From IMG/VR virus record IMGVR_UViG_3300012917_000004, positions 1-50,768 of that record: a stretch of DNA of 50,768 bases. One strand, given 5' to 3'. Position numbers and translations under genes: made by a program. Positions within the stretch are counted from its first letter, which is position 1, and every line of letters begins with the position of its first letter. Origin of the DNA: a virus (lineage: Duplodnaviria > Caudoviricetes). The notes under the pieces were generated by a model. That model saw only the letters and a list, made by a program, of their open reading frames with translations, did not search any database and was not told where the DNA came from. This document shows positions 1 to 50,768 of this stretch, piece by piece.

Positions 1-1103
1 AATTTACTTTCTTGCGGCGCATCTGCTGGTAATGAGGCGCTAGGATCTACAGTACCACCATCGGCCATTTTGGGAGGGTTTTTCTTAAGTTCTTCCATGA
101 CAAGTTTTTGTTTTTCTTCGTAGGATGGGCCAGTTGGTGCTTTGGGTTCATTAGCATTTGTCTTTTCCACTTTACCACCTTCTGAGAAATGCTTCGCTAG
201 AAACATTCCTTTTGTTGATTTATTATCGGAATCTAAATCAGGTTTCGTGACTGATAGTTCAAGATCAGGGACCGAAGCCGGTTTGCTTTTTTGTGCGGCG
301 AGAAGCGCGGCAACTAAGGCTGCTTTCTTGTCGGCACCATCTGTCTGCGAAGCGGTAATACCTCCATCTGCCATTCCTAAATGAATATCTTTATCGGCCT
401 TAGCCTGTGATTCATTTTCAAGAAATGTTACGTGATTTTCTACTTTACCACCTTTAGCATAATTAGTCGGCGAAGCTTGACCTGGAACAGCGATAGACTT
501 TGTAGCGCCTTCGGTCATTCCTTCTGGCACTTTGTAACCATAAGATTCGAGTGTACTTTTACTAAGAGTGCTCTGCGGAGGATGCGCCCATGCTTTGCCA
601 GGCGCGGGTACTTCGTCAAGTAAATTGAATGTAGCATCTGGTGCTGAACCTTTCATTACACTAGGAGAATGGTAGGCTAGGCGCACCGGAGCACTAGAAG
701 GATGGGTAGCGGTGACAACATCACCGATTTTAAACGGAGTGATATCTTTGGTTGTAGCTCCGGCTATATCTTCTGCCATCTTTGGTGCAGCGCGACCAAG
801 TGTAATTTCGCCTGCTTCACCAAGACCTTCTAAAGCAGCGGGAATTTCTTCGGCGGCACCTTTTGCCGCAGGGCCGAGCAAATACGGCAAAAGAAAATCG
901 GAGACAGTGGCATCTTTAGCCCCTAAATCGAGTTCGCTAGGATTTCCAGCCGTAACGCCACCTTCGGCCATATTCTTTCCGCCATTCGGATGGGCATTGT
1001 GAAGCGCAGCAGCAACAGCCTGGTCATGAGGGTGGCCGCTCGCTTCCATTTCATGAATATTTTCACTAATAACTTTTTTAGACTTACCAGAATGTAATGG
1101 CAT
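1..1103 (-). CDS. Probable internal virion protein with five [FYM]xxGG motifs; runs off the window start
   Basis: Not in the ORF track because it has no stop in the window. I read 367 stop-free codons from ATG 1103 (MPLHSGKSKKVISENIHEMEASGHPHDQAVAAALHN...). Starts 1 nt after the stop of the 436-aa gene. Confidence 0.85.
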   Translation of the reverse strand, partial: MPLHSGKSKKVISENIHEMEASGHPHDQAVAAALHNAHPNGGKNMAEGGVTAGNPSELDLGAKDATVSDFLLPYLLGPAAKGAAEEIPAALEGLGEAGEITLGRAAPKMAEDIAGATTKDITPFKIGDVVTATHPSSAPVRLAYHSPSVMKGSAPDATFNLLDEVPAPGKAWAHPPQSTLSKSTLESYGYKVPEGMTEGATKSIAVPGQASPTNYAKGGKVENHVTFLENESQAKADKDIHLGMADGGITASQTDGADKKAALVAALLAAQKSKPASVPDLELSVTKPDLDSDNKSTKGMFLAKHFSEGGKVEKTNANEPKAPTGPSYEEKQKLVMEELKKNPPKMADGGTVDPSASLPADAPQESK

Positions 1104-1104
1104 C

Positions 1105-2415
1105 TTAATGTCCCCTTTTGTAGCCACTGGTGAAGCTTGTAAGATCGACTTTCTTGTTTGTCCCGCCTACAGGCGCGTGACGAGCGAATTCTTCCATAGC
1201 GGCACCCGTTTTAGGAACAGAACGCGGCACAACTAGTTCGCCAGGACTAAGCATCGCTGGAATTGTATCATTTTTTTCACTATCGCCCTCAACAGTAGCA
1301 TGTCCACCAATATGCCCACCAAATTTCATGCAAATAGCATGATCGTGCGCTACTCCGCCATCAGCATAACAGGTATAACCGCCCTGTGCGAATGATGTAG
1401 CTCCAACAGGAGCATTTCTCGCTGAATTCATTTGATAAGCAGGAGAGCTCGTATTGCCAGGTGCTATGGCTTTCGCAGCTGTACCCCCAATAGCGGCTCC
1501 TACAGGGCCACCTAGCATAGCTCCGCCAATCGTTCCCGCAGCCCCTAGAAGTGTGCCTTGCATCCCCGCTTGATTGCCAGCAGCCTGTTGAGCAGCAGTA
1601 GCTTGCTGTGAACTAACACCTGCCATTCCACCTGCTTTAGCCATTTCATTATTGAATTGCTGCTGTGGCAAATTAGCGTTATAATACGCCTTGTTTTGAT
1701 TTGCAGTAGTATTTGCCGCATTCACACCCTGAGCGACGCCTAGATTTGTGGTTTGCCCAGCCATATTATTAGCTACATTGCCTACATTGGCAGCGTTCTG
1801 ATATCCTTGATTTGTAGCATTGATATTATTCTGTGCCGCCGCTTTCTGTGCCGCTTGGCCGTAGTCGGAAGCATTGATGCTGCCACCTATATTAGCCATG
1901 CTATTTAAAGCCGCTTGCCTATTGGCTTCTGCCATAGCTGCCGCCTGCATCCCTTGATTGGCACCTGTATTAGCAGCTCCCTGAGCTGCAATAGCGCGTT
2001 GTGTAAGGGCAAAATCGCCGCCGCCTTGCCCCATAGCTTGCGCTTGCTGCTGAATAGCACCTTGGGCACCTTGGGATTGGCGATTTGTGGCATCCATGAC
2101 CTGCTGAAGGGCTAGTTTCGATTCAGCGTCAAGTCCGCCAGCATTCGCAATGCCTTGATAGCTTTGTAAGGCGTTTAACTGCGCCTGACGAGAAGCCGGA
2201 TCAAGATTAATGTTATTGTAGGCCGAACCTTCTTGATTGATGGCCTGAATTTGTTCAGGAGTGATCTGGCCCTGAACTGTTTCTTGCGGCAATGCACCGA
2301 TAGTTTCAGATGCAATAGACGGAGCCTGAATATTTTGATATTGGGCAAGAGCTTGTTTAAGATAGTCTTGCGCCGAGGAATCGGATGAACCTAACAACGA
2401 ATCGAGAAGTCCCAT
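1105..2415 (-). CDS. Probable ejection/internal virion protein (Ala/Gln/Gly-rich) with a tape-measure-type C-terminal motif
   Basis: Low-complexity helical body, glycine-zipper hydrophobic segment (LLGAAGTIGGAMLGGPVGAAIGG), and C-terminal FAQGG..YADGG..DTIPAMLSPGELVVPR. Confidence 0.7.
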   Translation of the reverse strand: MGLLDSLLGSSDSSAQDYLKQALAQYQNIQAPSIASETIGALPQETVQGQITPEQIQAINQEGSAYNNINLDPASRQAQLNALQSYQGIANAGGLDAESKLALQQVMDATNRQSQGAQGAIQQQAQAMGQGGGDFALTQRAIAAQGAANTGANQGMQAAAMAEANRQAALNSMANIGGSINASDYGQAAQKAAAQNNINATNQGYQNAANVGNVANNMAGQTTNLGVAQGVNAANTTANQNKAYYNANLPQQQFNNEMAKAGGMAGVSSQQATAAQQAAGNQAGMQGTLLGAAGTIGGAMLGGPVGAAIGGTAAKAIAPGNTSSPAYQMNSARNAPVGATSFAQGGYTCYADGGVAHDHAICMKFGGHIGGHATVEGDSEKNDTIPAMLSPGELVVPRSVPKTGAAMEEFARHAPVGGTNKKVDLTSFTSGYKRGH

Positions 2416-2416
2416 A

Positions 2417-2656
2417 TTAATTAGCTCCTAAAGAGTTTACTAGCCCTTCAAACGGCTTACCTTGGGGCGCAGGTGCAGCCTGGTTCACATTTGGCTTCTG
2501 CTGTGCAAGAGCCATAGTTAAAGCTTGCAAAGCTTCTTGGTTGCTTAGATCGGGATGCATTTTGGCAAACTCCTGTATACCTGCCATAAGCTCCTGGTCT
2601 GAATACCCAGGAACAAGTTTTTTAACTTCCGGCAATAACGATTTAGGGTCTAGCAT
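2417..2656 (-). CDS. Hypothetical protein, 79 aa
   Basis: SD-like AGAGGA upstream of the ATG; tightly packed in the late operon. Confidence 0.75.
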   Translation of the reverse strand: MLDPKSLLPEVKKLVPGYSDQELMAGIQEFAKMHPDLSNQEALQALTMALAQQKPNVNQAAPAPQGKPFEGLVNSLGAN

Positions 2657-2981
2657 TGTTTATCCTCTTAGATGTAACGGTTTTAAATTCTGTATCTTCA
2701 ACCACTTCCATGCCGAAATGTCTATGCAAGCGAAGAATATAGTCATACAACGGATCCGACTTATAGATTTCTGCACAAAACTGTGTGCAGCCTTTATCTT
2801 CTGCTCGCTTAATGGTTTGGAGCGTAAGTTGAAGAGCCGCCCCCGTCCCCCGGTACTCCGGCTTTACGTAAAAATTGTCCACGTAACACACTTGTCCGTT
2901 AGTAATGGACGCCATAAAACCGCGTTCTGTTTCGACGATTAAATGGCCTTTTTCCCGCCAATACTCAGCGAAAAGACTCAT
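2643..2981 (-). CDS. GNAT-family acetyltransferase
   Basis: Acetyl-CoA-binding motif A (YVDNFYVKPEYRGTGAA) and a C-terminal HRHFGM segment resembling the FYxxxGF motif. Confidence 0.8.
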   Translation of the reverse strand: MSLFAEYWREKGHLIVETERGFMASITNGQVCYVDNFYVKPEYRGTGAALQLTLQTIKRAEDKGCTQFCAEIYKSDPLYDYILRLHRHFGMEVVEDTEFKTVTSKRINNARP

Positions 2982-4941
2982 ATTTATTCATCTCCGCAAG
3001 CGATTCGTCGAGATTTAGGTTTTCGTAATCATCGGTTTCATGCTCATCAGCAAACTCATTACCGTTAGACCATATACGATGATTTTCTGTTACAAGATTG
3101 CAAACAACTTCTGTTAGATATTTAAAATGCCGCGCACCATTTGAGTTTTCTACACGAACCCATTTACCATTTTCCTTAACCGCATGTTTACCAGTAACGA
3201 GAACACCGTTATACCAGTAAAAATCTGTACCAACGCCACGTGTAGTCGCAAGCACTTTCCCGCCACGTGTTATGTCACCGATTTTAATCTGCCATATCGG
3301 CTTTAAAGAACCGTCTAGCATGTCAATGAGCGTCCAAGGGTGAAAGCAAAATATATTTGTGACAGTACTTACAGCATTTTGAACGCCTTTTGCAACCGAT
3401 TGAACCGGCGTAGAAAGACCGCCTGTTAGGACATTGAGACCGATATTTTTAGCAGCATTTGTCGGCGTAGAGAATTGCTGCCCAACATTTTGTCCCGCCG
3501 TTACTGCGCCATGGGCCACCGCATTTGTAGCTCCCACGGGCGTCTGCGCTAATCCAGCGATATTCTGCATAGTCTGACTTTTTTGAGCATTCGCGGCAGC
3601 AAGTTGAGCATGTTGTTCGTCCGCGCCAGATTGCAAGGCATTTACATAAGCCTGAGCAGCGGCATTAGAGGCCGCTTCCGTGGTTTGAGCATTTTGTAAT
3701 GCACCTTGATAGTCAAAAGCATTGAGATTTGTCGGAGCTGTACCAGCCTGAGAAGCAGTAGCTGGGTTTATAGTCATTTGCGGCGTTTGAAGATTAAGAC
3801 CATTGACTAATGACTGAAATGCTTGGGCCTGTTGATACTGCTCCGGCGTCGCCGTGTTATTAGCATTAAGCACCGCATTTGGGTCTTGCTGCGTTAACCA
3901 AGCGGAAGGATCAATAGTAGCAGTACCAGTATTAGCTCCAAACTGTCCGTTAGCCGAATTTACCACATCAGATGTAGCTGCAGCTTTTTGGGCAGCACTA
4001 AATGTGTTCCATTGATCGCGTGTTATGCCTAATGCCTGTAAATTTTGGTCAGAAAGATTGCCACTAGTAAGATTCTGCTTAAGGGCTGCATTTTGAGCGG
4101 CAGCAGCGGCTTGTTGTTGAGTTAATTGATTCTGGACAGCAGTATTTAAGCCTGTCATTTGTCCGGCGATTTGACCCTGAGCAGCCTTACTAGATGCAGC
4201 AGCATCGGCTTGCTCTTGGGCGATCGTTTTGTTAACATCCTGAGCGCCAGTGCTTAGGCCACCAACTAAATTTTGAAACGGTTTATAAGCATCTTGTACA
4301 GATTGTAAAGCTTCGGGACTTTTAGAAAGAATAGCCGAGTTTAACGCTGTGACTCCGGTTGTAGGTGCAGCAGAGTTTTGGGCTACAAGTTGTTGACGAC
4401 CTGCTGCCGTTGTAGTTTGAGCTTGTCCCTGAGAAATTGCATTATTAAGCTTGGCTTGCTGAGCTTGATATTCATTAGTACCTTCGGCAGATTGAGGACC
4501 GCCATAATTATTTGTAAGTTGCTTCTGAAAAGCCGATACATTGCCTGTATCACCAGCAAATGACACAGGATTAGCCGCTTCTTGAGTGAGAATATCTGCG
4601 TTGCCTTTTGTATAGCCCGGAGCATTCGACACCTGTCCGGCAATATTTTGAATCGTTCCTTGATTACCTTGGTTAAGGCTATTATACTCTTGGCCGATTG
4701 ATCCTGTAATTTTACCGGCTAGGGGCTCGGCCTGTCCCTGATTAGCAGTAAGATACTTATCTAATGAAGCAAATTGACCACCAGCTTCTTTCGGTGCAGC
4801 AGTAGTTCCACCACCCGCACCTGTAGAACCCACACCCGCACTAGGGGCAAGATGTACAGCTCCATTACCCGCCGGAGCGACGGCTCCTTGGGCTTGTTTT
4901 TGTTCATCATCTGGAATGTCATTCGCCACATATGCCATCAT
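2965..4941 (-). CDS. Probable internal virion/ejection protein with a C-terminal Hint autoprocessing domain
   Basis: Gln/Ala/Asn-rich N-terminal 531 aa, then CFHPWTLIDMLDGSLKPIWQIKIGD (block A), VTGKH (block B TxxH) and VCNLVTENHRIWSNG (block F). Confidence 0.85.
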   Translation of the reverse strand: MMAYVANDIPDDEQKQAQGAVAPAGNGAVHLAPSAGVGSTGAGGGTTAAPKEAGGQFASLDKYLTANQGQAEPLAGKITGSIGQEYNSLNQGNQGTIQNIAGQVSNAPGYTKGNADILTQEAANPVSFAGDTGNVSAFQKQLTNNYGGPQSAEGTNEYQAQQAKLNNAISQGQAQTTTAAGRQQLVAQNSAAPTTGVTALNSAILSKSPEALQSVQDAYKPFQNLVGGLSTGAQDVNKTIAQEQADAAASSKAAQGQIAGQMTGLNTAVQNQLTQQQAAAAAQNAALKQNLTSGNLSDQNLQALGITRDQWNTFSAAQKAAATSDVVNSANGQFGANTGTATIDPSAWLTQQDPNAVLNANNTATPEQYQQAQAFQSLVNGLNLQTPQMTINPATASQAGTAPTNLNAFDYQGALQNAQTTEAASNAAAQAYVNALQSGADEQHAQLAAANAQKSQTMQNIAGLAQTPVGATNAVAHGAVTAGQNVGQQFSTPTNAAKNIGLNVLTGGLSTPVQSVAKGVQNAVSTVTNIFCFHPWTLIDMLDGSLKPIWQIKIGDITRGGKVLATTRGVGTDFYWYNGVLVTGKHAVKENGKWVRVENSNGARHFKYLTEVVCNLVTENHRIWSNGNEFADEHETDDYENLNLDESLAEMNKYESFR

Positions 4942-4950
4942 AGTTACCCT

Positions 4951-5376
4951 CTAATTTGTTATTTGCGGCCACCAAACACGTAAAGTAATTTGGTAGCGAG
5001 TGCCAGTTGTAAGGCCAGAAACACCTAAAACATTAAACATACCGTTTCCAAAGCTCCAACTAACGTATGGAGCGGTTGTAAACACTACCGCACTACCACT
5101 AGCTAGTCGAACATCCAGTACATCTCGTCCTATTGGCTGATAAGAGTATGAAGTAGTGAAACTATATGTATTGTCGGCGGCTGTTGCCCCCGCTATAAGC
5201 TGAAATGTTTTTGTTTGAGCAATACAATTCTGTTCTGGCGTTAAATTGTTGGACAAGCCTGAATAGATTTGCTGGAAAAATAGATTCATGGCGTATAACA
5301 AACGCTCTTTCCAACTTCCTTTCGGTGCATCTGCTAAATCTTCTTGGGTTAGTCGTCTATAAAGCGGAAGTTGCAC
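4951..5376 (-). CDS. Hypothetical tail-associated protein, 141 aa
   Basis: TAGTG stop/start coupling with the upstream tail gene; position in the tail module. Confidence 0.7.
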   Translation of the reverse strand: MQLPLYRRLTQEDLADAPKGSWKERLLYAMNLFFQQIYSGLSNNLTPEQNCIAQTKTFQLIAGATAADNTYSFTTSYSYQPIGRDVLDVRLASGSAVVFTTAPYVSWSFGNGMFNVLGVSGLTTGTRYQITLRVWWPQITN

Positions 5377-8003
5377 TATTTACTCCGAATAGTCGTCGGT
5401 TGATAAACTAAAACGCAACCGCCATAAGTAAAATTAGTCATAGCTTGATTCAAACTTAATTCTACATTTAACCAATGTGCTCTTCGTGCTGATAAGGGAA
5501 TATACGTACGGATAGATTGCACGATGAAGTCTGCATTTCCCCCCCATGGTACTTGACCCCAAGGAAACTGACCCCAACCAATGCTCGCTAAGGTAGGCAC
5601 GAGGTCTAATGGTGCCCCGCCGGGCACAAAATCGCTACTTATACGAATTGTAACGAAATCAAAGTCGACATTCTGAAAGAAAAACTGTATTTCTTTGAAG
5701 AATTTAATGACGCCTGGATTGCCAGGGGAAGCAGAATTCATTTCGCCGCCAACAATCGGGCAATAACGAACATCCACTGGGATTGGTTGTTCTATAGCGG
5801 TGTAGGATACCATTGTAAGGTCCCAATTAATGATATCGCTAACTTCTATTGTGGTGGCGTCTACGACTCGTGTAATCTTCGAAAGATTCAAAATTTGTGA
5901 AGGCACACCGCCCACTAGAATCAGTTGAGCGAGACTCCACCCCACTGTTACGTTTGCGGTACTTATAAGATTAACCGTTAGACCGTTAAATGCAGTAATT
6001 GTTACAGGTAATTCAATATCGGCAAAATCAAGACGCGTAAAGCTTTTGCGTTCTTGAAATACATATGGATAGGCTGGCGTAGCGGAGGATACATACAGTC
6101 GATGTTCTGTAGGACTTTCATGTATGTCATGAACAGCTATTGGATAAGTATATGTAGTCCAAGATTCAGTTATTGTGTCATATGCGTATTGAATCGTAGC
6201 CTTAACGAAGTTGTCGCCTTCGGCAATTGTACTCATAATATACTTACGATCTGTCTCATAAGCTGTGCCAAATGTACGCTCTGGAAATGTAATAAAAAGA
6301 TAAGAGCTAATTCGCTGAAGAATATTTTCAATTGGCCGCGATAAAATACCAGGTCCGGTTTCAGTGATTCCAACAACCCCTTGATTTGTATACGCAAACA
6401 CTTGATTATTCATAACTGCCGGACTTTCCGGCGCAGTTAAAATTGTGCCAGTATCAAGTGTTGTCACAGTAAAGGGAAATACACTACCTGTCAATTGAAA
6501 CAACCCATCAGCTTTGAGCACGATAACACTATTGCGGAGCGGCAATACTCGTAACCATTCAAAATTGGGATTGCCTACATTGATTGTATTAGCCAGCGGC
6601 ACGGCTTCTGGTTGCTGAAATTTAGAGCAAAAACCCATACCTTTCCCACCACCAGCAAGGGATGGGACGCCAACTGTAGGATCTAAAACAGGAGTCCAGC
6701 AGGTTGTTCTAGAGGATTTCACTTCGAAAGGGCCGCCGCCGATTCCTTGTTCTTGTAGAAAAAAATCACCGGGAAGAGAAGTAGCACTATTTACGTCTGT
6801 GGCATCAAAGGCGTAAACAATATCTTGTGCGACTAGATTTAGAACATGAATCAAAGAACGTTTAGTAAATAAAATATCGCTGCCGGGATCACCGCCTGTA
6901 AATACTTTAAACTTGTTCATAGATACATCTTCGGCTGCTGCACCCGTTAGGGTGAATGTATCTGTACCACGCGTAACGGTGAAAGTATCACCTACTTGAA
7001 TACCTAGTGGAGGTTCGCTAGACAACAAAGAAAGCAGGAACTTCTGTTGTGTAGTACAAGAGCCATAGATCAAGTAGCCAACAAAGAAACATACATCGTT
7101 TGATAATGGCGGAATAGTATTAGCTTGGGATATACCTTCCTGTCCCGAATTCGTATAAAGAAAAGCTCCTAACTCACTTTCTAGAGTTGTATCTGTTACT
7201 GTAAAATAGCCGTTTGTAATATTAGTGCTGCTTGGATTACCAACAATAACAAGTTGTAGCTCGTCGGATGGTTCAGTGATCGCCGAAGCAGATATTGGCG
7301 ATCTATAAATTTTATATTGATAGGCAGTTGTGGCAATATTTGGAATGGTAAAAGTCAATTGCACATTCCGTGTTCCGCCAGAACTATTTGCAATGACTAC
7401 ACGAGTACTGGGTACGCCTTCTACCGCATTATTATTAGCATCAGTAATAACCCACGTCATACGATAAGCGACTTCCGTATCGGTTTCCATAAAGCCCGCG
7501 ACATCAACGAGAGAAGCACTACCATCAAGTCCTGGCGGCGAACCAGCCGCGTAAAGAGCATTTGCGGGATCGTCAGTTTTCCATATACCAGCATTTGTAG
7601 TGAAATAGATATTATTGTTACTTTGCGCCGAACGATAAGTGTTTGTTAGCGCATAAGCTGGAGAGGGAACATTTGTACTGGTTTGGCTCCATGTCCCTGC
7701 GCCATCAGTATCATAGGCAAAATTATTACGAGCGGGATTGGCATCTGCGAGCGAGGCATTTCCATACCAAACAAGCTTTGAATCTTTATAGAAAAAGGTT
7801 TTAAACACTTCAAAATTAGTACCAGAAAGTGCGCTACCAAACTGTTTTATGCCACGCCGAACCGAAAGAAGGCCGTTATAGTCTACAACAACATTTTCCG
7901 CGACCAAAAGGCTACCCTTCGGCACCTTAGACAGTGCATTGGGCATCGTAAAGAGCCCTTTACAGTCTAGTTGAATTTCTTGTGGGTCTGAAGCTAAAGT
8001 CAT
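5376..8003 (-). CDS. Probable tail nozzle/hub protein (tail tubular B or P22 gp10-like role)
   Basis: 875 aa, beta-rich, directly after the putative adaptor. Role inferred from size and podovirus synteny. Confidence 0.6.
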   Translation of the reverse strand: MTLASDPQEIQLDCKGLFTMPNALSKVPKGSLLVAENVVVDYNGLLSVRRGIKQFGSALSGTNFEVFKTFFYKDSKLVWYGNASLADANPARNNFAYDTDGAGTWSQTSTNVPSPAYALTNTYRSAQSNNNIYFTTNAGIWKTDDPANALYAAGSPPGLDGSASLVDVAGFMETDTEVAYRMTWVITDANNNAVEGVPSTRVVIANSSGGTRNVQLTFTIPNIATTAYQYKIYRSPISASAITEPSDELQLVIVGNPSSTNITNGYFTVTDTTLESELGAFLYTNSGQEGISQANTIPPLSNDVCFFVGYLIYGSCTTQQKFLLSLLSSEPPLGIQVGDTFTVTRGTDTFTLTGAAAEDVSMNKFKVFTGGDPGSDILFTKRSLIHVLNLVAQDIVYAFDATDVNSATSLPGDFFLQEQGIGGGPFEVKSSRTTCWTPVLDPTVGVPSLAGGGKGMGFCSKFQQPEAVPLANTINVGNPNFEWLRVLPLRNSVIVLKADGLFQLTGSVFPFTVTTLDTGTILTAPESPAVMNNQVFAYTNQGVVGITETGPGILSRPIENILQRISSYLFITFPERTFGTAYETDRKYIMSTIAEGDNFVKATIQYAYDTITESWTTYTYPIAVHDIHESPTEHRLYVSSATPAYPYVFQERKSFTRLDFADIELPVTITAFNGLTVNLISTANVTVGWSLAQLILVGGVPSQILNLSKITRVVDATTIEVSDIINWDLTMVSYTAIEQPIPVDVRYCPIVGGEMNSASPGNPGVIKFFKEIQFFFQNVDFDFVTIRISSDFVPGGAPLDLVPTLASIGWGQFPWGQVPWGGNADFIVQSIRTYIPLSARRAHWLNVELSLNQAMTNFTYGGCVLVYQPTTIRSK

Positions 8004-21667: not shown

Positions 21668-23749
21668 TTATTTTGGCATCGTGGGGGTCATTACGCCATT
21701 TAAACTAGCGGCGGCATTCCCTACCATCGGCGACGTCTGGTGCGGCAAAATTGGGGCGTGAGGTTCCCATGGTGCGCCATGAGCGGCATTTAATGGCGGC
21801 GTAGAATTAGCTACAGCAGCAGAACCACCATCAGGCATAGGATTTGCCACCGGACCAGGCGTCGGCTGTTGCTGCGGGGGTGCCACATTATTACCTAGAA
21901 TAGCAAGCAATCGTGGATCATCTAAACCTGTTACATCAGGAATAATAACTCTAGCATGATTCAAAATATGAGTAAATGTTCCGGCCATAATAGGATTATT
22001 TTGAGTTTGCCGTAAAGTAGGGTCCATCAAAATAGTGGCGTGTTGTTTTATATGCAATATAGCATTATCGAATGGGCTTGCTATTACGGGTTCGCCTCTG
22101 CGAAGCTTCTCATTCTCTTCAACAATCAACATATTCTCGGCTTCGGGGCCTTCGATCATTGAATCAAGTTGCCCTGTTTCTAGTACTTGAAAATACTCCT
22201 GATTTGTCACCACTCCTTTCGCCATTAAATCTTGTGCAATCTGAAGCTTGCCAGCTTCGGAACGTGTAGCAGGATTGCCAGCAGAACATATAACGCGGGC
22301 GATATTAGAAAGGTCTTGGCCAGAGAACTCACCCATATAAGGCTTCTTACTTTGCCCAGCAATTGCAATCATACGTTTCGTATTTGCAAAGCTCTTTAGA
22401 ATATTGAAGAGGCCTGTTGCACTTCGTTCTAAGAAAGAAATATATGCTTGCTGAATAGGACTATTAAATACAAGTGCTTGAGCCTGTAGGAAAGCCATCG
22501 CAGTACCAGACTCTACCCCTGTAGGCGGTTGGCCGCGCAAAATGGAGGGAAGACCAGAAAGCTTTTCCATCTGTTGCTCAAGCACTGTAAGATAGTTAAA
22601 TACTTCGGCAGGAGTTTTGCATAGCTCCAAACCGATTGGTATTCCCTGCTTCATGTTCGTACGGATAAAATTAAGCCCCTCGATTACTTGTTCGGGTTTG
22701 GTCTGCGTAGACTCATCAACCACAATGTTTTGAAGGGCAAAAGCTTGCTGATTTGTAACGATTAAGCTCAATGTTTTATCGTAAGCATATTGCAGCTTAC
22801 AGAGCGAAGTCATTACTGTACAACCAAAATTATTAAATGGCATAACGTCAGGCATACAGGGATAGAGCGGAATTTCATCATACGGTAAATCTGTATCAAG
22901 AATCCAAGTATCACTATCAATGTATTGGGTCAAACGCCCTTTGGGACATGCCTGCGTCTTTCGATGAATCAGCGAATAGACCGGAATAATATCAACATTA
23001 GATGTTTGTGCATCTACAATATGCCCAAAACGAAAGCGCTGAATAGTAGTGGGCATGGTGTAGCCCTTTAGTTCATCTTCCAGATCTGGCCGTTGAGCTA
23101 TTAAATCCCATTTATTCAGATATTCTCGGACAATATACCAATCGTTATCCACATCCATACGAGTGTAATCACGAATAACATCCATTGGGCCAACAACCGA
23201 AAATTGTACGTCCCCTTCTTTTGTCGGTGTCTGCATTCCTTCTGGATTGGTAGTGACGTCCGTTATTTCGCCAATATCAGAATTCCACTTCTCGTAAAGC
23301 CAGCCTTCGCCAGTAATAAGCCCATAGGTTAGGCCAGTCTTATAGGCATCTTCCATTCGTTTTACTTTGAGATAGTAATTGCTTACGGCATCAAAAACGA
23401 GGTCTTGTGATAGGCTCTTGTAGTCAGAGTTTATCGCCTCTGGTTGAAATGACGGGCGCTGATTGGCAATAACACTTACAAGGCCAGTAACGATAGAACG
23501 ATAGATATTAGACTCGATGAGTTTATACTGTCCTCTATCGCCGCCAAAACGAATCCCAATCTTCATCTCGGAACGCATCCACATTTCCCAGTTTGTGCGC
23601 CATGTGGTGAGTTTACCAGTTCTTAGAACATAATCCTGGTAATCCTCAACGCGTCGCTCGCATTCCGCAAGTAAATCTTCGATGGGAAGAGTAGCAAAAT
23701 ATTGCTCTGGCTGTCCGCCAAATGTTCGTTGCATGCTACCAGAGGCCAT
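21668..23749 (-). CDS. Portal protein
   Basis: 693 aa immediately downstream of the terminase; MEKLSGLPSILRGQPPTGVESGTAMAFLQ matches the portal stem/clip pattern. Confidence 0.85.
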   Translation of the reverse strand: MASGSMQRTFGGQPEQYFATLPIEDLLAECERRVEDYQDYVLRTGKLTTWRTNWEMWMRSEMKIGIRFGGDRGQYKLIESNIYRSIVTGLVSVIANQRPSFQPEAINSDYKSLSQDLVFDAVSNYYLKVKRMEDAYKTGLTYGLITGEGWLYEKWNSDIGEITDVTTNPEGMQTPTKEGDVQFSVVGPMDVIRDYTRMDVDNDWYIVREYLNKWDLIAQRPDLEDELKGYTMPTTIQRFRFGHIVDAQTSNVDIIPVYSLIHRKTQACPKGRLTQYIDSDTWILDTDLPYDEIPLYPCMPDVMPFNNFGCTVMTSLCKLQYAYDKTLSLIVTNQQAFALQNIVVDESTQTKPEQVIEGLNFIRTNMKQGIPIGLELCKTPAEVFNYLTVLEQQMEKLSGLPSILRGQPPTGVESGTAMAFLQAQALVFNSPIQQAYISFLERSATGLFNILKSFANTKRMIAIAGQSKKPYMGEFSGQDLSNIARVICSAGNPATRSEAGKLQIAQDLMAKGVVTNQEYFQVLETGQLDSMIEGPEAENMLIVEENEKLRRGEPVIASPFDNAILHIKQHATILMDPTLRQTQNNPIMAGTFTHILNHARVIIPDVTGLDDPRLLAILGNNVAPPQQQPTPGPVANPMPDGGSAAVANSTPPLNAAHGAPWEPHAPILPHQTSPMVGNAAASLNGVMTPTMPK

Positions 23750-23761
23750 TATTTATCTCCG

Positions 23762-25234
23762 CTAATCATAAGATTCATTGTGATCCTTAAAACTAAATTC
23801 TTGGTTCATTGCTGCGTCTAGGCCAGCCGATACAATCTCTCCGGTCTGCGCTGCATCGCCTTCTAGCAGCTTCTTCGGTATAAACGTGTTTTCCTCATCA
23901 GCCCTAAAAGAAGGCGGCAAAGGATTCGTACGCATATCAACTGACCGAATGAGGTACATTAACATGGCAAAGCCATCGTAATGTCCGAATGTCTTGGAGC
24001 GCGAGAACTCTTTACCTCGTGCGCCGCCCTTCGTTTTAGTCCAGACACCATTCTTTAGGCATCCAAGCGTCTGCACACATCGGGGACTAACAATTACTCG
24101 GCCTTCTTTCACAAGCTCACGCACATCAGACACCATCACGTCTAGATAGGTCTTGCTCTCAACAGGCGAAAAATATAGATGATGACGCAAATTAAAGTCT
24201 TGCAGAAGAGAAGGAGTATTATTATCTGCAATTCGCTTCTTTATCTCCGCGTCTGCAAACACTTCTTTTTCTTTGGCAATGATACGTTCAGCCAATAAAT
24301 CGGTGGTTTGTTCGGGGCTTTTCATACATACTTCGTCTCGAAGCACAAGTACAGACTTTCCCTTAACCCATTCTACGCTAGCAAACCCACAAACAGAGTT
24401 ATCAGTCCAGCCTTGATCCAGCGCGGCATACTTGAACCAAAACTTGAAGTTGTCCGTTTTGGGCAACTCCTTCTCATAGGCAACATTCCATTCTGGGCAG
24501 AGCTGGAAGTCTGTATCAATGACAAACTCACAGAAGAACTCTCTGCGTACCTTGTGGGAAAGGATACCACCGAGGTCTTTAATGAACTTCTCTTGCCGCT
24601 CCAACGAGTAATGGCTATCTCGTATGGTGAGCTTCATATAGGCCCCGTCTACTGCAGCTTGATCGCAATAGCTCTTAAATGCGTGATCCGGCGTGACGGG
24701 GGGAGTGGACAACAAAAGTATATTGCCATTACGCGGTATAAGCGTTGCAACTAACGCTCCATCTACAATCTCGTCTAGATTGGCACTAAATCCTGCTTCG
24801 TCTAGAACGATAAGGTCAAACGCAAATGAACGTAGATTGTTATACGACGTACCTACGCCCTTCCCCACTCCTCGAAATAGTATCTTCGAGCCGTTGGGAA
24901 ATACTATCTGTGTTTTCCGTAATTTAGGACGCAGATGCTCAGGACAACTAGCAAACACCACGTCATAGAGCTGCCTCACATACTCCTGAACATCGTCTAC
25001 TGTGGGGGCAATAAACGCTACTAGAGCGTTCTTATTAGCTATACACGTCTCTGCGCTAAGGAACAGGCCGAGGACACTCTTCCCGATCTTGCGGCTGCAA
25101 TTGACAACGAACTTCGAATTGCTTGCCGTACTTATCTTGAATGCTTCGTATATCTTGCGTTGTGACGGATTGAGATGCACATATAGCCGTCCTACTTGCC
25201 AAGAGGCTTCAATGGCCTTCTCAGCATCGGTCAT
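23762..25234 (-). CDS. terL: Terminase large subunit; likely start ATG 25234
   Basis: Walker A NCSRKIGKS, Walker B LIVLDEA, coupling motif LLSTP, nuclease acidic motifs ALDQGWTD and HYD. Confidence 0.93.
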   Translation of the reverse strand: MTDAEKAIEASWQVGRLYVHLNPSQRKIYEAFKISTASNSKFVVNCSRKIGKSVLGLFLSAETCIANKNALVAFIAPTVDDVQEYVRQLYDVVFASCPEHLRPKLRKTQIVFPNGSKILFRGVGKGVGTSYNNLRSFAFDLIVLDEAGFSANLDEIVDGALVATLIPRNGNILLLSTPPVTPDHAFKSYCDQAAVDGAYMKLTIRDSHYSLERQEKFIKDLGGILSHKVRREFFCEFVIDTDFQLCPEWNVAYEKELPKTDNFKFWFKYAALDQGWTDNSVCGFASVEWVKGKSVLVLRDEVCMKSPEQTTDLLAERIIAKEKEVFADAEIKKRIADNNTPSLLQDFNLRHHLYFSPVESKTYLDVMVSDVRELVKEGRVIVSPRCVQTLGCLKNGVWTKTKGGARGKEFSRSKTFGHYDGFAMLMYLIRSVDMRTNPLPPSFRADEENTFIPKKLLEGDAAQTGEIVSAGLDAAMNQEFSFKDHNESYD

Positions 25235-25510
25235 GTTCAACCGACATTCTATCAACGCCACATTTCCAGCAGAACCAAGGACCGCCTATGATGTGCTGCC
25301 ATCCATGATAACAAATAATGCTATCGGTCACGATCTAACACCAAACACAATTATGCGGATAGTTCCTACCACACCAATAGAGCGGTAATGGTTGTACTGG
25401 TGGCCCTGAATAGTATGGCACCGAGGGCAAAGGCGTCTGTAGCAATTCCTTTGCTCGTACCTGTGTGCATTCATGGCATTCACATCTCGGATGATTACCA
25501 GTGAGGTCCA

Positions 25511-41769: not shown

Positions 41770-42132
41770 ATGGATGGTCAGTCGAGAATGGACGGAAAAA
41801 AGTTTGATGAAGGAAAACCTAAAATGAGCTTTGTTGCCAGATCATTATTGATCGCCATAGCTTATATCATGGAACCTGGCGCGATTAAGTATGGTCGCGA
41901 CAACTGGAAGGGCGGTATGCTGTGGAGTAGGCCATATGATGCTCTTCTTAGGCATTTAACAGCATGGTGGGATGGAGAAAGCGTGGACAGGGAAAGCGGA
42001 AAGTCGCACCTTTGGCATGCAGCTTGCGAGCTTATGTTTCTTATAGAGTATGAAGAAAAGAAAATCGGTAGTGACGATAGGCTACAGAAGTCTATCGCGG
42101 TAGATATTTTATACAAAAAGGAAACAGTTTGA
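41770..42132 (+). CDS. dATP/dGTP diphosphohydrolase-domain protein (DUF5664-type)
   Basis: KFDEGKP..GAIKYGRDNW..ALLRHL..DRESGKSHLWHAAC. Confidence 0.88.
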   Translation: MDGQSRMDGKKFDEGKPKMSFVARSLLIAIAYIMEPGAIKYGRDNWKGGMLWSRPYDALLRHLTAWWDGESVDRESGKSHLWHAACELMFLIEYEEKKIGSDDRLQKSIAVDILYKKETV

Positions 42133-43958
42133 ACTACGTCGATAAACGTATCGTAGTGGTGGATTTCGAGACTTATTATGATCGTAAGAAAGGATATGAT
42201 TTACGTTCTATGAGTTGTACTGAATACGTGCGAGATTGCAGATTTTGGCCCCACGGGCTTGCCTATCATTTTCTTGACGATGAGCAAACGCATTGGTTAG
42301 CCGGTAATCATGCAATCGAGGCGTGGATTGATTCGGTAGATTGGCCGAATACAGTCATTGTGGCGCATAATATTCGGTTTGACGGGGCTATTCTTGCTTG
42401 GCGATACCAAGTTAAGCCGTTTGCTTGGATGGATACATTAGGCCTGGCGAAAGCTGTCTTAGGCGAGAATGTATCCGGCTATTCACTTAAACGTTTGGCT
42501 GAATACCTCGGTTTGCCTGCTAAAGGGGAGATATCGTGCGAAGGTGTGTTACATCCATCACCAGAACAATTATCCGTTTTAGGCGAGTATTGTAAGAACG
42601 ATGTAGAACTGTGCAAAGGAATATATGAAAAACTTATCGGTCAATTCCCAATGTCGCAATTGTGGTCTATGGATTGGACAATCCGGGCTTTTATCGGAGC
42701 CAAACTCTGTTTATCGGAAAGTGTGCTTACGAAAGGGGTGCAAAATGAAAAAGCGCGGCGCGAAGAAATCATCAAAAAAAGCGGAATTGATAAAACCATC
42801 CTATCCTCCAATAAACAATTTGCAGAATATCTACGGAACCAAGGAATGGATGTCCCTACCAAGTTGTCAGGGCGCACGGGCAAGCAAATCCCAGCTTTCG
42901 CGCGGACAGATGAAGGCTTGTCTGTCATCATGGCCGTGGCCCCAGACCTCTATGCCGCCCGCATCGCCAGTAAAAGTAATCTCTTGGAAACAAGAGGCGA
43001 AAGCCTACTTATGGTTGCAAAAACAGGTTCTTTTCCGTTTGATGTGGGTTTTTCGGGAGCAGTTCAAACGCATCGGTATTCGGGGGGAAGTGGTGCTGGG
43101 GGTAATCCTCAAAATTTCACTCGTAATAGTTTTCTTCGTGATGCTATATGTGCTCCTAAAAACCATAAACTTATCGTTGGGGATTTTGCCGCCATTGAAC
43201 TACGGCTATTAGCATGGTTAGCGAAAGAGCCGAAGCTCATGGGTAAGATTATCAACGACGAAGACGTGTACTCTGACTTTGCATCTCTCAAGTATGGGCG
43301 GAAGATCACAAAGTCTGACAAAATAGAGCGCCAATTCGGGAAATGTTCCATCTTAGGCTTGGGTTATAATATGGGTGCAAAAAAGTTTAAATTCACCGTT
43401 AAAACACAGACGGGAATGGACATAAGTGAGGAGGAAGCATGGAAAACAGTAGATTTGTACCGAACTACATATTTCAATGTCCCGAAGCTGTGGGAGCAAG
43501 TCCATGCACTTTTACCGCTTTTTGCGGCGGGGAAAATAGGGTGTATTTGGTTTGCTCCATTCATAAAAGTAAAAAAAAACTCGCTTGTATTGCCTTCCGG
43601 CTTGACGGTTCAATACCCAAATCTTAGACAGGTAGGCGATGAATGGGTGTACGATACATACAAGAAAGTGTATGAAGCCGAGCAAACAAAGCTTTATGGC
43701 GGAAAATGCGTGGAAAATCTTTGTCAAGCTCTGGCGGGAGAATTAACTAAGCTGGCCATCGAAAGAGCAGAAGCGGCAGGATTACAGTGTGTTTTTCAGG
43801 TACACGATGAGATAGGTGTTATTGCCCCTAATAATCAGGCCCAAGAAGCTGCCGCTATTCTGAAGCGATGTATGGAGCAACCGCCTTTGTGGCTTCCTAC
43901 AATTCGTTTGAAAGCAGAAATCGGCATAGGGGACAACTGGGGAAATGCTAAATGTTGA
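42129..43958 (+). CDS. polA: DNA polymerase family A with 3'-5' exonuclease domain
   Basis: ExoI DFET, ExoII HNIRFD, ExoIII YCKND; motif A DFAAIELR, motif B RQFGKCSILGLGY, motif C VHDE. Confidence 0.95.
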   Translation: MNYVDKRIVVVDFETYYDRKKGYDLRSMSCTEYVRDCRFWPHGLAYHFLDDEQTHWLAGNHAIEAWIDSVDWPNTVIVAHNIRFDGAILAWRYQVKPFAWMDTLGLAKAVLGENVSGYSLKRLAEYLGLPAKGEISCEGVLHPSPEQLSVLGEYCKNDVELCKGIYEKLIGQFPMSQLWSMDWTIRAFIGAKLCLSESVLTKGVQNEKARREEIIKKSGIDKTILSSNKQFAEYLRNQGMDVPTKLSGRTGKQIPAFARTDEGLSVIMAVAPDLYAARIASKSNLLETRGESLLMVAKTGSFPFDVGFSGAVQTHRYSGGSGAGGNPQNFTRNSFLRDAICAPKNHKLIVGDFAAIELRLLAWLAKEPKLMGKIINDEDVYSDFASLKYGRKITKSDKIERQFGKCSILGLGYNMGAKKFKFTVKTQTGMDISEEEAWKTVDLYRTTYFNVPKLWEQVHALLPLFAAGKIGCIWFAPFIKVKKNSLVLPSGLTVQYPNLRQVGDEWVYDTYKKVYEAEQTKLYGGKCVENLCQALAGELTKLAIERAEAAGLQCVFQVHDEIGVIAPNNQAQEAAAILKRCMEQPPLWLPTIRLKAEIGIGDNWGNAKC

Positions 43959-45207: not shown

Positions 45208-45963
45208 ATGACGAAACTAAAAGTGTTAGTTTTTGATATTGAAACTGCGCCTATGACGGCCTATGTTTGGGGCAGACACGATGTCAATATTGCTCTCGGA
45301 AACATACAGAAAGATTGGTCGATCATCGCTTGGTCTGCAAAGTGGCTCGGAAGCCCAGCATCAAGCATCATATACTACGATCAGCGAAACGCAAAAAACA
45401 TCGAAGATGATAAAGCTATTCTCAAGCCATTGTGGGAACTTTTAGACGAAGCCGACATTGTTGTAACGCAAAACGGTAAGAATTTCGATAGTAAGATGCT
45501 TAATGCGCGGTTTATTTCACATTGTTGGGCTCCCCCTAGCCCATATAGGCATCTTGATACCTATCAAATTGTTCGCCGCGTCGCTAAATTCACGTCAAAC
45601 AAGCTTGAATATCTTACTGAAAAGCTTTGTGTGCGCTATAAAAAGCTTTCCCACACGAAATTCCCTGGTATGTTGTTGTGGAGCGAGTGCCTCGCCGGTA
45701 ATAAAGCGGCATGGCGCGAGATGCAACGATATAATATCCATGATACCCTAGCGACGGAAGAGCTCTACGAGAAGGTGAAAGCTTGGGCTCCGGCTTCTAC
45801 CCCAGTCTTTTATGTAAAAGATACCTCAACGGAATGCCATAGATGCGGAAGCAACGACAAAATGCGGCGTAAGGGCCGAGAGATGACAAAAAGAGGTTTG
45901 ATGCAAAAGTATCAATGCCAGGGGTGCGGCGCATGGACACAAGGAAAGGCGAGAATACGATGA
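45208..45963 (+). CDS. RNase H-fold (DnaQ-like) exonuclease with a C-terminal zinc ribbon
   Basis: FDIET, QNGKNFD, HLDT, YNIHD; CHRC..CQGC. Confidence 0.85.
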   Translation: MTKLKVLVFDIETAPMTAYVWGRHDVNIALGNIQKDWSIIAWSAKWLGSPASSIIYYDQRNAKNIEDDKAILKPLWELLDEADIVVTQNGKNFDSKMLNARFISHCWAPPSPYRHLDTYQIVRRVAKFTSNKLEYLTEKLCVRYKKLSHTKFPGMLLWSECLAGNKAAWREMQRYNIHDTLATEELYEKVKAWAPASTPVFYVKDTSTECHRCGSNDKMRRKGREMTKRGLMQKYQCQGCGAWTQGKARIR

Positions 45964-49821: not shown

Positions 49822-50768
49822 TAGGGTTGCACCGTGAGATTTGGATCCATTTGCTTTGCTTTAGCAATATTAGCGGCGGGAATCCACTGAGACGGTCCTC
49901 CGTCTGACGGCTTTACAAGGATATTGCCTTGCGCTCGATGAAAGTATTGATCTGCTAATTTAGCACCACTAGCCTGTAATTGCGCGGCACTTGGTTTCAT
50001 GCTTAGAATAGAAGCATTTTTCGTCGCATTATCTACATCAGTACCCGCTTGAGCATGTGCTTTCATGTAAAGATCGGCGTCTTTTTCTTGTTTGGCTACT
50101 TGAGCCGATAGAAGCGAAAGATATGATGGTAAATCTTTTTTCATCGTGCCTTTAGGAGCTCCAATCATGCCATTCAAATGTTCGTCAACGCCATAAGCAT
50201 CCGCAGCAGCGGCTTGCTTTAAGGCATTGTCGCCCATTTGGGTCTGTAGCTGTAGTTTTTGAATCCTATCTTGCCGAGCTTTGTCAAAATTAGCTAACGC
50301 TTCATCGCGCTGCTGCTTTTGCATACTAAATATGCCTTGTAGCGAGTGCTGTTCCCGGCCACCTTTTGCCGCAATAGCATCGCCAAGACCAGAAATCGCT
50401 TCGGCAATTACTGAGCCGATACCATGCTGCTGCTCTTGCATTTTACCAGTGAGGGCTTGTCGATCTTCTGGATTCACGCCAGCCGTTAATTTAGACGTAT
50501 CTTGATTAAACATGTTTCCAATATTGGGCATATTCGATGGAGCGGTTGATCCAGGTGCAGGCGGTGCGACAATGGGCATAGGAGTTGGTAAAGGCTGCAT
50601 TGGCGGCGCGGGCGTAGGTGATGGCGGAGCAGCTTGGATAGGCGCAGGCGAAGCTGGTATTCCCGCCATAGCTCCGGCAATAGGAAGTGCTGCCTTCGCT
50701 TCTTGACCTACGATATTCTGAATTGGGGCAGATTGGGCAAAGTCGGCTATTGCTCCCATTGGATTCAT
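49821..50768 (-). CDS. Probable ejection/internal virion protein, 315 aa
   Basis: Pro-rich N-terminus and coiled coil; TAATG coupling to the next gene. Confidence 0.7.
   Translation of the reverse strand: MNPMGAIADFAQSAPIQNIVGQEAKAALPIAGAMAGIPASPAPIQAAPPSPTPAPPMQPLPTPMPIVAPPAPGSTAPSNMPNIGNMFNQDTSKLTAGVNPEDRQALTGKMQEQQHGIGSVIAEAISGLGDAIAAKGGREQHSLQGIFSMQKQQRDEALANFDKARQDRIQKLQLQTQMGDNALKQAAAADAYGVDEHLNGMIGAPKGTMKKDLPSYLSLLSAQVAKQEKDADLYMKAHAQAGTDVDNATKNASILSMKPSAAQLQASGAKLADQYFHRAQGNILVKPSDGGPSQWIPAANIAKAKQMDPNLTVQP

Follow-up and report, generated by a model that had tools for sequence, protein, structure and literature searches.

A compact, apparently non-splicing Hint module at the C-terminus of a candidate internal virion protein of a tailed phage

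The DNA considered here, referred to as the window, is the whole of IMG/VR virus record IMGVR_UViG_3300012917_000004, a linear stretch of 50,768 bases rated 100% complete by CheckV. Near its left end the minus strand encodes a 658-residue protein which, as judged from fold prediction and profile comparison, closes with a compact Hint domain and a short acidic tail. A sequence-only reading of this DNA had proposed such a domain as a domesticated autoprocessing element acting through Cys532, and the open reading frame, the sequence strings quoted for it, Cys532, the TGKH and FAD motifs and the 26-residue tail were all found as it had placed them (Table 1). Its central idea, a domesticated and non-splicing Hint, is supported by the results described below and forms the core of their interpretation, and the module emerges as a distinct Hint variant with a minimal core, a terminal Asp, an acidic tail helix, a strictly C-terminal location and frequent exchange at its junction with the preceding chain. 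In a full-length AlphaFold2 (AF2) model computed from a 40-sequence alignment (A1; mean predicted local distance difference test score, pLDDT, of 79.7) residues 1-58 are disordered, and are followed by a confidently modelled helical N-domain, a low-confidence linker (467-528) and the Hint module with its tail.

Structural modelling indicates that residues 532-632 comprise a complete Hint fold. On its own the window protein falls below the Pfam cut-offs, matching Vint with 17.2 bits (E 0.0045, cut-off 27) and Hint (PF01079) with 14.9 bits (E 0.021, cut-off 29.7), and neither the 658-residue protein nor its C-terminal part has a match in PHROGs. Recognition at the level of the family was obtained with alignment A2, made of the last 151 residues of the window protein, 23 translated loci and five short representatives (29 relatives). 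Over these 29 members Pfam identified Vint in 26 (E<=0.1; best 1.8e-8), Hint in 18 (best 1.4e-6), Hom_end_hint in 11 and Hint_2 in eight. As a profile against PDB sequences A2 retrieved ten chains at E<=1e-3, all of Hint type, led by BIL2 of Tetrahymena (1.2e-5), its matches including the Nanoarchaeum split intein, the Tetrahymena Vint domain, PI-SceI and an intein-containing V-ATPase subunit; at E<=10 the Hint type still accounted for 22 of 23 matches, the exception being a stathmin-like chain without a matched stretch.

Structure-based comparison led to the same fold. The AF2 model of the domain based on A2 (mean pLDDT 88.7, predicted template modelling score 0.80) gave 12 Foldseek matches at E<=1e-3, each of them a Hint fold, and a superposition by VIA-align on BIL2 (6y75_A) with Z 14.1 and a root-mean-square deviation (rmsd) of 1.7 Å over 110 residues at 22% identity. 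Z values of 12-12.6 were obtained for mini-inteins, the bacterial intein-like (BIL) domain of Clostridium thermocellum (12.3) and Hedgehog 1at0 (12.2), and rmsd stayed at 1.6-1.8 Å for BIL2, inteins and Hedgehog. VIA-align as a whole gave Z 10-14 and rmsd 1.6-2.1 Å for 98-110 residues, all 50 listed matches of the first search being Hint folds. In a Foldseek-independent VIA-align search of 48,161 representative chains the 24 best-ranked matches were likewise Hint folds (Z 9.9-13.6). Comparison of a predicted structure with Hint families, which the sequence-only reading had suggested as a check, thus found the Hint fold, and its proposal of a genuine compact Hint without an endonuclease is borne out by AF2, Foldseek, VIA-align and profile evidence, with no endonuclease insert present between C532 and D632.

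Table 1. Positions of the Hint-bearing gene, its parts, neighbouring genes and related genes at other loci (L numbers denote loci of this analysis, with positions on the respective locus)
Feature	Position	Strand	Remarks
Whole gene	2965..4941	(-)	658 aa; disordered N-terminus, helical domain, linker, Hint, acidic tail; stop 2965-2967
Helical N-domain, residues 60-465	3547..4764	(-)	AF2 pLDDT mostly >90; includes 72-residue helix 222-293
Linker, residues 467-531	3349..3543	(-)	pLDDT 27-52; ends in amphipathic VQSVAKGVQNAVSTVTNIF and -1 residue F531
F531 codon (-1 residue)	3349-3351	(-)	
Modelled Hint fold C532-D632, 101 aa	3046..3348	(-)	AF2 domain pLDDT 94-98
Cys532, predicted nucleophile, block A position 1; predicted scissile bond F531-C532	3346..3348	(-)	gca, reverse complement TGC
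Block B T583-G-K-H586 (TxxH)	3184..3195	(-)	reverse complement ACT GGT AAA CAT
H621, block-F-like His in VVCNLVTENHRIW	3079..3081	(-)	
D632 of F630-A-D632, intein C-terminal Asn position	3046..3048	(-)	GAT
Acidic tail E633-R658, 26 aa	2968..3045	(-)	helix 644-657 (2971-3012), pLDDT 93-94
Upstream neighbours of the Hint gene	4951..8003	(-)	875-aa protein 5376-8003 and 141-aa protein 4951-5376
GNAT-like gene, 112 aa	2643..2981	(-)	start overlaps last 17 nt of the Hint gene
79-aa gene	2417..2656	(-)	overlaps stop of the GNAT-like gene
GNAT-like homologs (108-112 aa) directly downstream of a Hint gene	L003:9979-10305, L004:9970-10305 (L004/L037), L006:587-916, L013:8402-8728, L019:9925-10257		
1660-aa proteins ending in Hint	L022:2515-7494, L023:3570-8558, L025:2705-7684, L027:113-5098		

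The boundaries of the domain follow from the same superpositions, residues 532..632/633 pairing in the Foldseek-independent search with residue 1 to the last of the matched chains. In both VIA-align searches C532 falls upon intein residue 1 and D632 upon the last intein residue (aligned end points being, for instance, 1..440 in Mtu RecA, 1..454 in PI-SceI and up to 125 in gp41-1), and because of this correspondence the FAD motif occupies the place of the intein His-Asn pair, as had been read from the letters. The stretch from C532 to D632 measures 99-117 residues (median 102) in the 215 copies that keep both Cys and Asp, so that compactness is a trait of the family; all 50 solved Hint chains listed by VIA-align have at least 125 residues, against 101 here, in agreement with the earlier remark that the domain is shorter than typical Hint folds of about 135 residues.

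The family is large. With residues 500-658 as query, a word-indexed search of a 5.8-billion-protein set yielded 70 homologs, the Cys being kept in 70/70, and an exhaustive phmmer search over 1.84 billion cluster representatives gave 1493 matches at E<=1e-3 and 704 at E<=1e-10, the family being counted accordingly as at least 1493 clusters at 50% identity. Conservation was evaluated over 217 proteins containing 235 domain copies, aligned to a hidden Markov model (HMM) built from A2. Cys1 is present in 217/235 copies, the 18 exceptions being degenerate second copies or N-terminally truncated fragments; block B begins with Thr or Ser in 223/235 (Thr 182, Ser 41) and its His is found in 220/235, and in all members of A2. 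His621, which we take to be block F from its position and from the intein motifs, is His in 198/235 copies and Asn in 20/235. The D632 position is the most constant of all, with Asp in 233/235 and gaps in the remaining two. Upstream of the Cys the -1 residue is Phe in 164/235. Downstream of D632 the +1 residue (E633 in the window) is Glu in 135, Tyr in 31, Gln in 26, Phe in 19 and Thr in two of the 235 copies and never Cys or Ser, and the penultimate residue (A631 in the window) is Ala in 177/235 and never His. As neither a +1 nucleophile nor a penultimate His is present, splicing of the intein type is not expected.

The location of the module within its proteins is equally constant: it ends no more than 15 residues from the C-terminus in 192/217 proteins, 16-50 residues from it in 25/217, and never farther. 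What precedes it varies, comprising the helical protein of the window, shorter phage proteins of 390-490 residues, and others. Phage proteins of 1660 residues that contain DUF4815 (E 1e-44) and match phrog_358 (E 1.8e-265) also end in the Hint module, which must accordingly have become fused to large phage proteins of unrelated kind. Multi-pass membrane proteins of about 420 residues, encoded by tandem paralogous genes on giant-virus-like contigs (L015-L021, L024, L026 and L029-L035, partly labelled GVMAG), end in the same Hint family, and in these the Cys directly follows a transmembrane helix.

As far as searched, the family appears to be confined to viral hosts. The nearest ESM Atlas clusters consist of viral 'Hint-domain' proteins of Nucleocytoviricota and Uroviricota, with Vint annotated on 21-52% of members, and BFVD has numerous entries from uncultured phages, CroV and other giant viruses under the name 'Hint domain containing'; some viral proteins have therefore already been tagged as Hint-containing in databases. 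Patterns derived from A1 were matched 52 times in 185,579 prokaryote species genomes, and none of these matches was confirmed for the patterns used. Translated searches (tblastn) of 50,697 GenBank phage records found no match to the whole window protein, nor to the Hint end of a 1660-residue relative or of a distant phage relative.

Proteins with a duplicated domain provide a built-in control on whether the catalytic residues are under selection. Tandem Hint copies occur in 18 proteins, all of the AT-rich type with multiple membrane spans, and in 18/18 the first copy retains both Cys1 and the block-B His. In the second copies the Cys position is occupied by Gly in nine cases and Ser in one and is unaligned in four, and the block-B His has been replaced in 15, mostly by Gln. 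Among single-domain proteins only four lack the Cys, all of them fragments that start inside the domain; catalytic Cys1 and the T-x-x-H motif, which had been pointed out in the window protein, recur in every complete single-domain relative. Since Cys and His are kept in the working copy and have decayed in the redundant one, selection for catalysis is indicated. D632 and E635, on the other hand, are retained in second copies devoid of both Cys and His, a fact that bears on several of the readings weighed below.

The tail was at first described as nothing more than a 26-residue acidic stretch, which is accurate as to length and charge and undersells it in other respects. Several of its positions are well conserved (out of 235 copies, E635 in 223, D637 in 176, Y639 in 149, E640 in 165, L648 in 179 and N652 in 194), and it is confidently modelled, with a helix assigned by DSSP to residues 137-150 of the domain model; it is not significantly amphipathic. 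A tail HMM matches 81/84 Hint-bearing orthologs at E<=0.01 and none of 48 Hint-less ones significantly (best E 0.067). Because it co-occurs only with the Hint domain, the tail is to be regarded as part of the module and not as an extein belonging to the host protein.

On the other side of the junction, the amphipathic helix that had been proposed to precede the cut is confirmed only in part. Were they helical, the 19 residues before Cys532 would have a hydrophobic moment of 0.576, a value matched by none of 2000 shuffles, and this strong amphipathic periodicity extends to the family, the corresponding 19 residues ranking within the highest 5% of shuffles of the same stretch in 157/212 proteins. 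The AF2 model, however, shows no helix in this segment (pLDDT 27-38). Two other candidates for a constant feature of this region were rejected, namely a transmembrane segment (19-residue Kyte-Doolittle mean >=1.6 in only 12/211) and a Gly-zipper (at least two GxxxG motifs in only 42/211), and sequence comparison thus points to amphipathicity as the general pre-junction feature.

A survey of homologues for the presence of the Hint domain, likewise suggested at the outset, gave a divided answer. With residues 60-466 as query 170 homologs were found, at least 120 of which were listed, and among those listed 64 were new, 48 of these 64 being Hint-less. The resulting set of 132 N-domain proteins comprises 84 with Hint and 48 without. 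Among the latter the chain stops within the linker in 36 and continues into an unrelated module of about 110 residues in 12 (P0220, P0222, P0223, P0225, P0226, P0228, P0229, P0232, P0234, P0236, P0238 and P0241 in our numbering). These 12 orthologs share the pre-junction segment and diverge exactly where the Hint domain would start. Their alternative module begins with Ser-Gly-Gly-Thr-Trp-Val/Ile-Cys, has a Trp-rich end and belongs to no Pfam family. In a quick maximum-likelihood tree of the N-domain (132 rows, with seven long branches and several open forks flagged, and a midpoint root that serves the drawing alone) the C-terminal state switches 17 times or more; even when only well-supported branches are considered, at least ten changes of the Hint label are forced, compared with a mean of 39.3 for shuffled labels, and the earliest-branching rows, as drawn from the midpoint, all carry Hint. 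Some of the rows scored as having no module may represent broken gene calls, and one of them ends in an apparent frameshifted tail. Loss or replacement of the module at least 10-17 times among close orthologs marks it as an accessory open to exchange and not a constant component of the protein. The claim of a domesticated rather than selfish element is consequently upheld insofar as the module cannot home or splice like an intein, and is to be qualified insofar as it is so readily lost or swapped. Such repeated turnover at one junction, along with the sharing of the module between phages and giant-virus-like membrane proteins, bears on the question of how Hint domains spread.

Each of the established settings of Hint domains, namely inteins, Hedgehog proteins, BILs, Vint proteins and polymorphic toxins, offers a point of comparison for the present family. 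Closest both in structure and by profile is the BIL2 domain (PDB 6Y75/6TMM) encoded at the polyubiquitin-like locus BUBL1 of Tetrahymena thermophila, which has Cys1 and the block-B His in common with the window domain and exemplifies a Hint thioester used beyond the splicing of homing inteins. BIL2 terminates in Asn (mutated in the solved chain, N143A), lies between two ubiquitin-like domains of a eukaryotic protein and is about 150 residues long, whereas the window domain has 101 residues, a terminal Asp and a 26-residue tail at the end of a phage protein. With the Hedgehog C-terminal domain (HhC, PDB 1AT0) the window domain shares the Hint fold (Z 12.2-13.4, rmsd 1.6 Å, 100 residues), a C-terminal location, Cys1 and TxxH, the expected absence of splicing and a helical element after the core. 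It differs from HhC in scoring below the PF01079 cut-off, in having only a 26-residue acidic tail with one helix after the core, where HhC has its sterol-recognition region, and in its -1 residue, Phe instead of Gly; in a comparison made without residue-level superposition, no equivalent of the Hedgehog general base D303 was identified.

BILs are bacterial domains, often found in secreted or hypervariable proteins. Type B BILs and the C. thermocellum BIL (PDB 2LWY; Z 12.3-13.4) resemble the window domain in lacking a C-extein nucleophile and block G, and on the features compared, the presence of motifs A and B and the absence of the +1 nucleophile, they are compatible with it. The C-terminal His-Asn of type A BILs is replaced in the window by A631-D632. 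What separates the family from BILs is its own invariant Asp and tail motif, and the lack of any relative in prokaryote genomes with the patterns used. Here, as in type B BILs, cleavage is expected to be uncoupled from splicing (PMC4031507).

Among Pfam families Vint (PF14623) matches the relatives best; it is likewise C-terminal, and in the case of the Tetrahymena domain (PDB 8R2C) yields an alignment that extends into the tail (model residues 23..143). The window protein itself lies below the Vint cut-off, only motifs A and B being matched (profile positions 2-78 of 166), and no VWA or Vwaint domain was found in the 658-residue protein at E<=1. In eukaryotes Vint domains have roughly the length of a Hog domain (PMC2362128), as against 101 residues here. 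The HINT domains of polymorphic toxins offer a parallel as autoproteolytic modules located towards the C-terminal end of large modular proteins, whose C-terminal parts can be exchanged (PMC3417536). They precede a toxin domain, which they release, whereas the Hint domain of the window is followed by its 26-residue tail only, with the variable part on the N-terminal side, and in none of 217 proteins do more than 50 residues follow the module. A functional analogy, and no more than that, may be drawn with the peptidase S74 C-terminal chaperone domains of tail fibres and spikes, which are removable and, once their task is done, cleave themselves off through a Ser-Lys dyad; their fold is unrelated, and the proteins that carry them have a beta-helical rather than a helical N-terminal part and no predicted Cys thioester. 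Among the best matches of a search of open-access text no paper was found on this family, experimental or otherwise, or on a Hint domain attached to a phage ejection or internal virion protein, and the phage papers found to mention Hint domains do so in the context of terminase or ribonucleotide reductase inteins (PMC3556154, PMC5259590).

Taken together, these features make it reasonably probable that the module mediates a Cys532-dependent self-cleavage after F531, that the thioester is hydrolysed, and that the Hint domain thereby acts as a C-terminal pro-domain which is shed from an internal or ejection-type virion protein. The fold, the residue conservation, the C-terminal location, the size of the family and the exchange of modules at the junction are direct results; chemistry, cleavage site, timing and virion or ejection role are inferred, the mechanism from established Hint chemistry and from conservation. 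Cleavage at the N-terminal end by way of a thioester is the course taken by Hint domains that lack the +1 nucleophile, BILs and Hedgehog among them (PMC4031507, PMC9163320). By analogy residues 532-658 would constitute a self-processing module made of a minimal Hint and an acidic tail helix packed upon it. Cys532, aided by T583 and H586, would attack the F531 carbonyl in an N-S acyl shift, and resolution of the F531-Cys532 thioester by water would result in a single cut after F531. Two products would be expected, a 531-residue, mostly helical virion protein with a new amphipathic C-terminus ending in Phe, and a free 127-residue fragment retaining Hint and tail in one piece, all within what may be a podovirus-like gene module. 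If the protein is indeed self-cleaving, it would provide a protease-independent route for maturation of phage internal proteins, and the domain would make an attractive minimal self-cleaving tag.

Several findings weigh against this reading. A Hint fold with conserved residues is no proof of activity. The 36 orthologs without a module and the 12 with another one imply that the protein can work without Hint, and Hint-less forms stop earlier in the linker and not at the equivalent of F531. Simple hydrolytic cleavage at the N-terminal side also leaves unexplained why D632, the most invariant position, and E635 (223/235) should be so strongly kept; as both persist in copies without Cys and His, their conservation must be at least partly structural or serve another function. 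No cultured phage with the family was found among the GenBank phage records searched by tblastn. Finally, the N-domain has no match in PHROGs or Pfam and none beyond generic helical bundles among solved structures, and the suggestion that the Hint-bearing protein acts in the virion or in ejection comes solely from synteny.

An unlikely alternative, yet the strongest of those considered, is that the thioester is handed to a specific outside nucleophile, be it an amine or hydroxyl group on a lipid, an amine in peptidoglycan, a small molecule or a lysine side chain in another virion or host protein, so that the helical protein becomes anchored covalently through its C-terminal Phe; the tail, D632/E635 or a GNAT-like protein could then recruit or activate the acceptor. 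That the closest solved structure is BIL2 speaks for such a transfer, as BIL2 forms an isopeptide bond to lysines (PMC8616854). So does the use by Hedgehog of an Asp general base and a helical region following Hint for reaction with cholesterol (PMC9163320), an invariant Asp and a helix being found here as well. The likeness of the acidic, non-amphipathic tail to the Hedgehog sterol-recognition region is, however, one of position alone, and D632/E635 are kept in copies incapable of forming the thioester. A membrane-surface-type amphipathic segment precedes the bond in most members, and a transmembrane stretch does so in the giant-virus-like ones, which likewise speaks for transfer; there is no candidate acceptor.

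The remaining argument for transfer lies in a GNAT-fold gene that overlaps the Hint stop codon in the window. Its product matches Pfam Acetyltransf_1 with 28.4 bits (cut-off 20.7) and phrog_1249 at 1.4e-10. Within the synteny class of the window a GNAT-like gene is present in six of eight Hint-bearing loci that include downstream sequence (the window, L003, L004/L037, L006, L011, L013, L019 and L038) and in none of six Hint-less ones (L039-L044), a split with an exact probability of 28/3003, or about 0.009, which overstates independence since the loci are related. Against a role in the reaction, it is absent from the other phage synteny class (0/6 loci: L007-L010, L012, L014), and its acetyl-CoA motif, R-G-T-G-A/S, is confined to close relatives and not retained in the distant L013 and L019. 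Complex prediction for Hint-plus-tail with the GNAT-like protein, run without controls, scored 0.00 against a mark of 0.32 and speaks neither for nor against binding. The gene is thus a possible cassette partner of the Hint domain, to be treated as a lead.

Transfer of the thioester, if it takes place, would be the first instance in phage infection of covalent anchoring by such chemistry. In a more far-reaching and rather doubtful form of the idea, the module would be a viral anchoring device of Hedgehog/BUBL style, at work in phage assembly or genome ejection. The thioester would arise at the end of an amphipathic segment (a transmembrane one in giant-virus-like members), and the C-terminal Phe would be passed to another virion protein or to the host envelope, the accepting group being an amine or a hydroxyl, with the participation of the invariant Asp/Glu tail and, in some phages, of the co-inherited mini-GNAT protein; the module would then also contain the smallest natural Hint yet seen.

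Less probable still is a non-catalytic role, with the Hint domain serving as a binding or packaging module (for procapsid targeting, or as a channel plug) and the 658-residue protein being the mature form. The retention by second copies of D632, E635 and the tail even where Cys and His have gone hints at some function beyond thioester chemistry, and the exchange of Hint for unrelated C-terminal modules among orthologs would suit an interaction or cargo module. This is difficult to reconcile with the strict retention of Cys1 and of the TxxH His in complete first or sole copies and their decay in second copies, a pattern that points to selection for catalysis.

Cyclisation of D632 with cutting of the D632-E633 bond, either freeing the 26-residue tail or ligating it to F531 with excision of Hint in the manner of a type A BIL, appears improbable. 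A near-invariant Asp at the Asn position and a tail conserved as an extein might be would fit it, inteins with a C-terminal Asp, Gln or Glu can cyclise, and type A BILs ligate their flanks without a +1 nucleophile by way of the freed amine (PMC4031507). Type A BILs nevertheless possess His-Asn, whereas no penultimate His is seen here in any of 235 copies; the tail never occurs without Hint, leaving no empty allele with joined exteins; it is confidently modelled as part of the domain (pLDDT 93-94); and second copies without the Cys still carry both D632 and the tail motif. Classical intein splicing is rejected on account of the absence of a +1 Cys/Ser and a penultimate His from all 235 copies and the invariable position at the protein end, as is insertion of a class 1 intein with joined-extein alleles, given a tail in 0/48 Hint-less against 81/84 Hint-bearing orthologs.

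The suggestion of a virion function for the 531-residue part derives from the genes around it. The order of an approximately 850-residue protein, an approximately 141-residue protein and the Hint protein is common to L003, L011, L013, L019 and L037-L044, and downstream of the Hint gene small genes are followed by Ala/Gln/Gly-rich proteins of about 400-600 residues, again in conserved order; the gene order is kept even among relatives at about 27-40% identity. It resembles, to the extent that sequence comparison can tell, the tail-then-internal-protein arrangement of podoviruses, whose ejection proteins are usually recognised through size and synteny (PMC8954989). As to the fold of the N-domain, Foldseek against the PDB with the full model matched the Hint part only, VIA-align against the 48,161 representative chains returned generic helical bundles with Z<=9.5, which is below a meaningful level for helical proteins, and the best BFVD match is an uncharacterised 508-residue protein of an uncultured phage. 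The 875-residue upstream neighbour has neither a Pfam nor a PHROG match; it lies near ESM Atlas clusters with crAss muzzle families (score 0.91, 178 shared features), which may be taken as a lead only. Several other neighbouring proteins likewise belong to no Pfam family. Base composition gives no sign of a foreign-looking island at the Hint gene, the GC content of 0.41-0.43 across 2400-3400 being inside the range of the genome, with higher values in the flanking Ala/Gly-rich genes.

The 79-residue gene that overlaps the GNAT stop codon has counterparts of 72-90 residues in L003, L037, L038 and L043, and none in L039-L042 or L044.

Elsewhere the window carries the gene set of a tailed phage, including the large terminase (23762-25261), the portal (21668-23749), tail and tail-fibre-like proteins and endonuclease VII, with primase-helicase and family-A DNA polymerase on the strand opposite to the terminase, portal and tail genes. 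The polymerase (42129-43958 (+), 609 aa, phrog_17) is separated by about 1.2 kb from an exonuclease-subunit-like gene (45208-45963 (+), 251 aa, phrog_403 at E 6.7e-83), and polymerase functions appear to be divided between the two. At the ends of the record, an open reading frame at 3-1127 (-) runs off the start and another, at 49821-50768 (-), begins at the very last bases; the run of virion-module genes probably continues across the record ends, as in a permuted or circular map. The low-complexity proteins encoded at 3-1127 (-) and 1105-2415 (-) contain several repeats of a motif made of Ala/Glu-Asp/Glu/Lys-Gly-Gly and a hydrophobic residue, and motifs of the same Ala/Glu-Asp/Glu/Lys-Gly-Gly type are found at the ends of some Hint-less orthologs (P0247, P0253, P0258, P0269 and P0277).

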